Assembly: GCA_963662335.2 (NCBI GenBank)
Contig: CAXXVD010000003.1
Location: 480,001-544,000, forward strand
DNA: 64,000 nt
DNA from: Chloroflexota bacterium
GTDB taxonomy: Bacteria > Chloroflexota > UBA11872 > VXOZ01
Direction: 5' to 3'
Below the pieces are notes generated by a model. That model did not search any database. It saw only the letters and a program-made list of their open reading frames with translations, and was not told the origin of the DNA. This document shows, in pieces, positions 1-1,670 of the stretch. The position numbers and the translations under genes are program-made. Within the stretch, counting starts at the first letter, position 1. Each line of letters starts with the position of its first letter.

Positions 1-358
1 CACGGGCCAGGACGGCGCCGCCGACCGCCTGGAGCACCGCGAACTCTTCTTGCAGGACCACGGCAACATCTTCTACTTCATGAACCGCACCATCTGCGAC
101 GGCCGCTATAAGTTCGTCTTCAACGGCTTCGACTACGACGAACTCTACGACCTGCAAGAAGACCCCCACGAGACCTACAACCTGGCGGAAAATCCGCACT
201 GCGCCGACGTGCGCGAGCGGCTGACCGACCGCCTCTGGGACTGGATGCTGCGGCTGGAAGACCCCTACGCCGGCCGCCAGTACGCGGCGAACGTCATCCT
301 GGGCCGCAGCGAACCGCCGCCCAATCGCAGAGATCCCTCGCCGCGTAAGCTACTGTGA
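1..358 (+). CDS. Sulfatase, C-terminal part (5' truncated by window)
   Basis: Frame open from base 2; RTICDGRYKFVFNG..DELYDLQEDPHETYNLA is the typical sulfatase C-terminal motif. Confidence 0.85.
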   Translation, partial: TGQDGAADRLEHRELFLQDHGNIFYFMNRTICDGRYKFVFNGFDYDELYDLQEDPHETYNLAENPHCADVRERLTDRLWDWMLRLEDPYAGRQYAANVILGRSEPPPNRRDPSPRKLL

Positions 359-1490: not shown

Positions 1491-1520
1491 TAGACAACGC
1501 GCTCGCCCGTGGTGTATGAT
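1491..1520 (+). promoter_or_regulatory. Sigma70-type promoter of small transcript
   Basis: TAGACA (1491-1496), 18 bp spacer, TATGAT (1515-1520). Confidence 0.6.
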
Positions 1521-1525
1521 GGGTG

Positions 1526-1670
1526 GCAAGAGAAAGGAGGTGATGCCCATGGATGTAAGTTGTAGATCCAGGGCCGCCTCCGCTAAGTCTCGGTAACGAG
1601 ACCGCGGAGCGGCCGTTGGACAATGAAGGAGCGCTCACGGCGCACGTGCGCCGGGCGCTCCTTTTGTTTT
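1526..1670 (+). ncRNA. Candidate structured small RNA / 15-aa sORF transcript
   Basis: AAAGGAGGTGAT at 1533-1544; ATG 1549 to TAA 1596; multi-stem hairpin 1567-1620 with GTAA loop; terminator 1626-1670. Confidence 0.6.
1626..1670 (+). terminator. Intrinsic terminator
   Basis: AAGGAGCGC...GCGCTCCTT stem followed by TTGTTTT. Confidence 0.75.

Follow-up and report, generated by a model that had tools for sequence, protein, structure and literature searches.

A small rre-like RNA gene in Chloroflexota with an extended 16S-tail complement and a 15-codon reading frame

What is selected in a short bacterial transcription unit that opens with a long complement of the 16S rRNA 3′ tail, carries a reading frame of only 15 codons and closes with a terminator: its peptide, its base pairing with other RNAs, its effect on a neighbouring gene or its dealings with the ribosome? 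The question is raised by positions 1491–1670 of the window, by which we mean the whole 64,000-nt stretch of Chloroflexota DNA analysed here. We read the following features there, with counts that refer to the 17 members of the genus.

1491–1496, plus strand: −35-like hexamer TAGACA (TAGACA in 15/17, TGGACA in 2/17).
1515–1520, plus strand: −10-like hexamer TATGAT after an 18-nt spacer (TATGAT in 13/17, TATGCT in 3/17, TAGAAT in 1/17).
1527–1670, plus strand: predicted transcript of ~144 nt (~145), its start inferred and its end at the U-tract.
1531–1544, plus strand: extended Shine-Dalgarno (SD), complementary to the 16S 3′ tail and invariant in 17/17.
1549–1596, plus strand: 15-codon mini-ORF, MDVSCRSRAASAKSR, with AUG at 1549–1551, 8 nt past GGAGG, and UAA at 1594–1596.
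1550–1570, plus strand: predicted small 5-bp hairpin, UGGAU/AUCCA (1550–1554/1566–1570), which holds the U and G of the AUG and has an 11-nt AU-rich loop.
1572–1614, plus strand: long GC-rich hairpin of 43 nt, with the stop codon in its apical GUAA loop (1593–1596); 18 pairs, 99.7% of cells paired.
1575–1581, plus strand: internal anti-SD-like CGCCUCC, which may mask GGAGGUG (1536–1542) in an alternative predicted fold.
1625–1670, plus strand: intrinsic terminator, a 17-bp hairpin (1625–1664) with the U-tract UUUUGUUUU; 17 pairs, 100% of cells paired.

We found the promoter proposed in a first-pass annotation (TAGACA/TATGAT) to be present and conserved in the genus; it is sigma-70-like, matches 10/12 consensus positions and is one of 2 such sites in 5 kb, where 0.7 are expected. 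In an alignment of the 17 genomes, a near-invariant block runs from CAAG (1527), 7 nt past the −10 hexamer, to the terminator between flanks that are unalignable, and the 16S complement begins four bases from the predicted 5′ end. The start codon is ATG in 17/17 genus members, and the ORF spans 15 codons in 16/17, with 43 codons in the remaining genome, G012. Both the tiny ORF at 1549–1596 and its stop codon in a hairpin loop, as first described, can be read in the sequence, and the peptide, MDVSCRSRAASAKSR, is indeed polar and basic rather than hydrophobic like type I toxins. Two RNA-labelled runs (X22 and X23) and a soil run (X7) gave coverage of the repeat at 1424–1465 alone; the element itself is covered only by run X1, whose kind is unspecified and which may be the source sample. 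From the sequence we infer transcription of the ~145-nt RNA, its binding to 30S, its translation and the coupling of these to its stability.

The docking site was compared with the sole 16S gene detected in this genome, whose DNA 3′ end reads ...GGAUCACCUCCUUUCU and is a 14-nt perfect complement of 1531–1544. The 12-nt match AAAGGAGGTGAT at 1533–1544, reported in the first-pass annotation, was thereby confirmed against the genome's own 16S, and it extends to the 14-nt AGAAAGGAGGTGAT (that is, AGAAAGGAGGUGAU) at 1531–1544. As the Rfam 16S model stops at ...CCUUU, 12 nt are certain, and all 14 would pair only with a mature tail two bases longer (...UUUCU). The 14-mer has 2 copies in 3.23 Mb (a 3,228,809-bp assembly), the element and the 16S gene, and the same is true of every 12- and 13-mer of the complement. 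Because each of these words is absent outside the element and the 16S gene, 1531–1544 is the strongest SD of the genome. Allowing ≤2 mismatches, the 64-kb window contains 1 match to the tail complement where 0.18 would be expected. The predicted duplex with the 16S tail reaches −23.8 kcal/mol, compared with −12.2 for a GGAGG-only control; with no other copy of ≥12 nt outside the rRNA gene, the description of the site as an SD far beyond the normal is well founded.

In predicted folds of the 17 genus members, the 14-nt site is mostly unpaired (mean probability 0.56–0.79), at an opening cost of 0.5–3.2 kcal/mol. The minimum-free-energy structure of the 145-nt version of G000 contains the CGCCUCC/GGAGGUG pairing and is near-isoenergetic with an SD-free fold. 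GGAGGUG and CGCCUCC are both invariant. We also observed that the base after ...GGUGAU (1543–1545) is G in 33/46 tabulated unit rows, C in ten g8 copies and two others, and U in one. This G ends the complement and makes a second AUG 2 nt past GGAGG, one that shares the frame of the main AUG in this genus and in g5 but not in f4 or f3.

Downstream of the docking site, the RNA is predicted to be highly structured. For a 146-nt RNA the predicted folding energy is −74.5 kcal/mol (z-score −6.7), and 0/200 shuffles were equally stable. The stems of the long hairpin are GGCCGC/GCGGCC, UCCGC/GCGGA and GUCUCG/CGAGAC, capped by GUAA. The nested stems drawn at first pass therefore hold for the region of GGCCG/CGGCC, CTCCGC/GCGGAG and GTCTCG/CGAGAC. 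The outermost TCCA/TGGA may form as drawn, but it is absent from the predicted fold, which pairs AUCCA with the upstream UGGAU. Likewise, the GNRA cap is seen as GUAA in 15/17 genus members and is not strict, with CUAA in G002 and UUA/UUAC in G012. The G012 unit (L018) has a one-base insertion, GGUAACG to GGUUACCG, that adds a base pair, loses the TAA and leaves a 43-codon ORF running through the terminator; as this genome comes in 60 contigs, the insertion may be an assembly error, or else it is a genuine variant.

Pairing is kept throughout the genus. The alignment has 99.9% of 680 cells paired, and 15/40 pairs vary with all but one cell still paired; together with an SD invariant in 17/17, this shows that the SD and the stems are conserved in relatives. 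Variable pairs change by G-U or, in 2 pairs, by compensation, a number of compensatory pairs that 27/500 shuffles also reach. In the long hairpin, the pair 1583/1604 is C-G, U-G or U-A among genus members and two other pairs vary via G-U alone, and the terminator stem has one compensatory pair (U-A to C-G) and six pairs with G-U changes. All 5 pairs of the small hairpin at 1550–1570 are invariant, so the alignment speaks neither for nor against it. Because nearly all positions are invariant within the genus, the hairpins are suggested there mainly by thermodynamics and the 2 compensatory pairs, and the genus alone is weak covariation evidence. The terminator was found by folding; a simple terminator scanner did not list it. 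A minus-strand reading, which folds as well (z −6.71), was rejected: the G-U pairs, the U-tract and the promoter suit the plus strand only, and a signal scan at the element detected neither promoters nor terminators on the opposite strand.

The unit is single-copy in its own genome and occurs once each in 17/17 species of the genus, with the 16 others at 82–89% identity over ~180 nt. The same search in 44 genomes of other families returned short matches only (E ≥ 3.8e-4). In 15 genomes, 54/56 of the first 56 nt are invariant, compared with 20/81 four-fold sites of the neighbouring Peptidase_M55 gene (binomial ~1e-30). This block includes the beginning of the ORF, where 10/11 third positions of codons 1–11 are invariant, which indicates a constraint on the nucleotide sequence.

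The upstream gene encodes a class-I glutamine amidotransferase (GATase) on the plus strand. Past the terminator hairpin (1625–1664) and its U-tract, the genes that come next are minus-strand without exception: a 96-aa ORF (1701–1991, no Pfam match), Peptidase_M55 and a DegT-type aminotransferase. Thus an intrinsic terminator with no same-strand gene downstream, another element of the first-pass annotation, is what we find. Peptidase_M55 lies downstream in 15/17 genus loci and the GATase upstream in some. The gap before Peptidase_M55 holds variable small cargo, with a Fic/DOC-domain ORF on the other strand in G008 (L007:1047–1445), and toxin–antitoxin-like modules may preferentially settle in this gap, as in a hot-spot. 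A REP-like palindrome (1424–1461) lies between the upstream gene and the unit. It belongs to one of three families of intergenic REP-like repeats (1424–1461/2955–2992/3172–3209; 475–523/2979–3027/3113–3161; 3065–3101/4637–4673); the copy at 1424–1465 is matched by many contigs of unrelated soil and wastewater runs, so this repeat family is widespread.

To look beyond the genus, we used a covariance model built on it (R1). R1 scored 168–183 bits in 17/17 genus genomes and 17.7–27.3 bits in 5/81 other genomes of the class, and these weak matches owe their score mostly to the SD block and the terminator. The exact pattern GAAAGGRGGTGATGC occurs in 27/98 class genomes, almost always once each (reversed control, 0), and a looser pattern, AAGGRGGTGAT-2..9-RTG, in 72/98 (reversed control, 14/98). 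Reading these loci revealed stand-alone units in other families, each version specific to its genus or family, with a TTGAC-type promoter, a 12–14-nt tail complement that starts within a few bases of the predicted 5′ end, an ATG 8–11 nt past GGNGG, a short ORF, nested helices and a terminator. Their ORFs are as follows.

f4 units: 19 codons in 10/10 copies from three genera, MSDTYGSRFGASLTEVIEH and variants.
f5/g5 units: 21 codons in 9/9 copies.
f6/g8 units: 17 codons in 10/10 copies.
f3 units: 29–30 codons in 10/10 copies.
f2 unit: 22 codons, in a single genome.

The 24 genomes of g10 and the 7 of g4 yielded no unit. When the f4 units were modelled with the terminator left out (R2), the model matched 12/19 f4 genomes (g14 5/5, g19 5/5, g18 1/1, g17 1/1, g4 0/7). 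Whole-genome searches with R2 gave no match in the 17 genus genomes, the 9 of f5 or the 14 of f3, and with filters off the element itself scored 15.2 bits (E 0.004 in 21 kb), mainly from the SD block. Using tblastn, we found no matches of five flanking proteins at 14 other-family loci; the flanking genes are not common to the families. To judge from their sequences, these families share one architecture and possibly one lineage.

Across a sample of the phylum, the 15-mer is present in 66/401 genomes. Of 30 such loci that we read, 8 are stand-alone tiny-ORF units (five from one genus, together with L106, L107 and L109), 10 from one genus form the leader of a lipoprotein-like gene, and the remainder are ordinary genes or unclear. 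At those ten loci (L090–L099), a conserved leader of ~110 nt opens with GAAAGGGGGTGATGCGGCG, which is not followed by a start codon at SD distance, and the downstream gene, lipoprotein- or solute-binding-like, has its own SD; the leader may hold a start-less ribosome-docking site. A Thermoflexus/Chloroflexota version appears in at least 11 records (L114 (5316–5460), L125, L126, L131, L134, L152, L154, L162, L167, L168 and L175). It is stand-alone and has the identical 14-nt tail complement, a 21–22-codon ORF (MDEKRRTDLKEAGRRITSGER) and a terminator. Within this ORF, GCAUCACCUCC is an 11-nt perfect partner of the SD, so that the SD is predicted to be able to mask itself. In a metagenome scan we came across another copy of the genus type, as well as two additional versions.

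No Rfam family accounts for the unit. At gathering thresholds, Rfam gave only two tRNAs in the window, and a search at E ≤10 over 1350–1800 gave only sub-threshold candidates, which we rejected: mir-2830, ctRNA_p42d on the terminator and CC2171 at 16.9 bits against a cut-off of 75. Rfam thus matches no known family at the element, in agreement with the first-pass view, and on seven relatives' loci it found one tRNA only and no family match to the units. However, the accompanying claim of an undescribed sRNA does not stand, as the unit shares its build with Ms_IGR-5 and, in the accessible text of PMC5711450, with rreB and rreR.

In that text (Hahn et al., RNA Biol 2016/17, PMC5711450), rreB of Bradyrhizobiaceae is a 165-nt RNA with a 17-nt 16S-tail complement and a 14-codon sORF starting with GTG. 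It is found in the ribosomal fraction, where it co-sediments with 30S; it is weakly translated, and removal of its start codon makes it more stable. The sORF of rreR, from Rhodobacterales, has 18 codons, and rre RNAs of both types were shown to bind 30S. Genomic context is conserved within each family only. The peptides are unstructured and unrelated, with no similarity reported even between RreB and RreR, and neither a phenotype nor a function was found. Over-expression of rreB had no effect on growth, and the authors argue that ribosomes far outnumber the RNA. The rre start codon is GTG, with an ATG exception in Azospirillum (PMC5711450). Our literature search found no later paper on rre RNAs.

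Set against this account, the Chloroflexota unit resembles the rre RNAs in being a free-standing small unit with a sigma-70-type promoter and a terminator (here as signals only; ~145 versus 165 nt), in having an SD embedded in a long perfect 16S-tail complement with possible partial self-masking, in the short sORF that follows (15 codons in 16/17 members versus 14–18), and in conservation and synteny that are family-bound, with unrelated peptides in different clades (PMC5711450, accessible text). By contrast with rreB as described there, the complement is 12–14 nt, not 16–17, and is followed by a mismatched G; a 4-nt spacer precedes the AUG, whereas the rreB complement reaches into the start codon; and the start is AUG in 17/17, not GTG. 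Owing to this spacer, translation should be less hindered than in rreB. The unit also differs from rre RNAs in its phylum, and over such a distance similarity to the rreB or rreR sequence would not be expected; it differs further in an SD predicted to be mostly free at the extreme 5′ end and in a stop codon at a hairpin apex. As it departs from rreB in two defining details, the complement of 16–17 nt running to the start codon and the GTG, the unit is rre-like rather than an rre gene. It is an uncatalogued member of that kind, and in the literature searched we found none reported for Chloroflexota.

Other known systems share parts of the design. The model consensus of Ms_IGR-5 (RF02471, Actinobacteria) opens with an SD-like block, ACACAaGGAAGGAgGugGuC, and its Streptomyces match (74.3 bits), our positive control, has a 12-codon ORF after the SD, then hairpins and a terminator stem. 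Unlike that control, the element gave no RF02471 match at E ≤10 in 1350–1800, and the best score in the whole genome, 14.5 bits against a cut-off of 45, lay elsewhere. The Streptomyces pattern site L153 is itself not Ms_IGR-5 according to the model search. Among ribosomal-protein genes, rplJ of two genus members (L080 and L081) has the same 15-mer, GAAAGGAGGTGATGC, ahead of it, and a long SD precedes the bS21 gene (rpsU) in a relative from the class (L229) and in Nonlabens. The long SD of bS21 serves autoregulation. We also observed the long SD before Lys/Ala-rich histone-like proteins in Planctomycetota; the Nonlabens and Planctomycetota loci are L116, L159, L186, L130, L135 and L143. Whereas the SDs of rplJ and bS21 serve normal protein genes, the one here is followed by a 15-codon ORF and a terminator. 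The short ORF within alternative hairpins, then a terminator, is reminiscent of leader-peptide attenuators and type I toxin mRNAs. However, an attenuator would have a regulated gene downstream on the same strand, and there is none; nor is the peptide hydrophobic or an antisense partner seen at the locus, as in type I toxin–antitoxin systems.

The unit could instead be a true micropeptide gene, in which the basic peptide of 15 residues acts as the effector and the extreme SD serves only for very high translation, with the hairpins stabilising the mRNA. This would fit the ideal ribosome-binding site and AUG, invariant in 17/17, and a peptide that is identical in 12/17 genus members with conservative changes in the others. 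It would also fit an ORF length that is constant inside each family and the similar N-termini of some families (MD.S, MGSS). Two shallow families have an excess of variable sites at the third codon position, on few sites (positions 1/2/3 being 2/1/4 in g5, or 4/7, and 1/0/4 in g8, or 4/5), and some peptide constraint may therefore persist. Within the genus, however, synonymous sites are equally frozen, the 10/11 third positions standing against 25% invariant four-fold sites next door. Over five families, variable ORF sites fall 30/35/37 on the three codon positions (chi-square p 0.68), with no overall periodicity; G012 with its 43 codons, two 30-codon f3 members and the G088 copy were left out of this count. 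In the deep families nearly all variable codons alter the residue (16/17 in f4, 24/24 in f3), and the changes track stem compensation. The f4 alignment has 95.5% of cells paired and compensatory changes in 18/42 pairs, and 0/500 shuffles reach any of five measures; because codons 5–10 contain the 5′ arm of its 16-bp helix, compensation rewrites the peptide. Stem covariation in the face of a changing peptide is therefore evident in f4, whereas the genus gives weak evidence, with 2 compensatory pairs and 27/500 shuffles. The peptides of different families are unrelated, although ORF start, frame and length are fixed within each, and the stop is lost in 1/17 genus members. In three of the five families, the majority of members have stops in the +1 and +2 frames (+1-frame stops in 0/9 copies of f5/g5 and 0/10 of f6/g8; +2-frame stops in 3/10 of g8). 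In the accessible text of PMC5711450, the RreB and RreR peptides are unstructured and without phenotype. Taking these observations together, we consider a peptide effector unlikely. The simplest reading of the sequences is that ribosomes start at the AUG and need to terminate at one given point of the fold, with the amino acids largely free. It was fair to suggest, as the first pass did, a dual RNA/peptide unit, but of the two the data favour capture and transit of the ribosome over a peptide effector.

Two further explanations do without ribosome transit. One is a trans-acting base-pairing or decoy sRNA, whose G-rich 5′ end or AU-rich loop (1555–1565) would pair with CU-rich RNAs, either anti-SD-like sRNAs or mRNA segments, or bind a protein, with the ORF incidental. 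Its size, promoter and terminator are sRNA-like, and the 54/56 invariant nucleotides include an 11-nt loop with no evident structural role. We nevertheless judge it improbable, more so than a peptide effector: the invariant 5′ block is the exact complement of the 16S tail, an AUG follows at the right distance in every family, and start, frame and ORF length are kept across families when loops and inserts are not. The other is that the unit regulates a neighbouring gene, in cis as its leader or attenuator, or by an antisense mechanism. The combination of short ORF, hairpins and terminator looks attenuator-like, and elsewhere in the phylum the same SD block heads the ~110-nt leaders of lipoprotein-like genes (L090–L099). 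Here, however, the genes that follow are encoded on the opposite strand. Conservation ends at the terminator, and the adjoining DNA is not the same in the 17 genomes and carries variable cargo (Fic/DOC on the other strand), which makes a role in cis very improbable.

We lean towards a free-standing, rre-type ribosome-docking mini-mRNA, in which selection would act on the RNA and its dealings with the ribosome and not on the peptide. Its own promoter would yield an RNA of ~145 nt ended by the intrinsic terminator. A mostly single-stranded stretch of 12–14 nt would pair with essentially the whole free 16S 3′ tail, and this pairing would put the AUG, 8 nt past GGAGG, into the P site. The ribosome would read the 15-codon frame, unwind the 5′ arm of the GC-rich hairpin and terminate at the UAA of the apical loop. 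The docking site, start, frame length, stop position and stems would then be selected, and the peptide sequence would not. If rreB is a guide, the fate of the RNA probably depends on its engagement by ribosomes, and the level or conformation of the RNA would reflect free 30S or initiation capacity. Two observations count against parts of this scheme. The loss of the stop in G012 argues against a strict need for apical termination, unless it is an assembly error, and the AUG and ideal spacing, unlike those of rreB, predict efficient rather than damped translation. As for the earlier proposal that the RNA binds or sequesters 30S subunits, the unit appears built to engage 30S, but bulk sequestration is unlikely if the ribosome excess argued for rreB (PMC5711450, accessible text) applies here.

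A broader possibility, which we hold only tentatively and think doubtful, is that rre RNAs, Ms_IGR-5 and the Chloroflexota units form one pan-bacterial class of translation-gated RNAs with the peptide as a by-product. If so, a full-tail SD at the 5′ end would capture free 30S, and translation of a fixed-length mini-ORF to a fixed stop would be the signal. Such a signal could, for example, report how much free 30S or initiation capacity there is and thereby set the stability or conformation of the RNA itself. Alternatively, such RNAs could be dedicated test mRNAs, or tail-protectors for newly made or idle 30S subunits.

To our knowledge, small mRNAs with a full-length 16S-tail complement have been studied by experiment in alphaproteobacteria only. 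Within Chloroflexota, the same design is found in the majority of the genera examined in one class and also in several further families, and in this genus the element is among the most conserved non-coding DNA. That docking site, start, ORF length and stems are kept when the peptide is not argues that ribosome engagement is the selected property. These units widen the phenomenon well past one bacterial class and offer many natural variants for work on 30S binding, toeprinting and stability, and they represent a recurrent, nearly universal small gene that annotation pipelines have missed.
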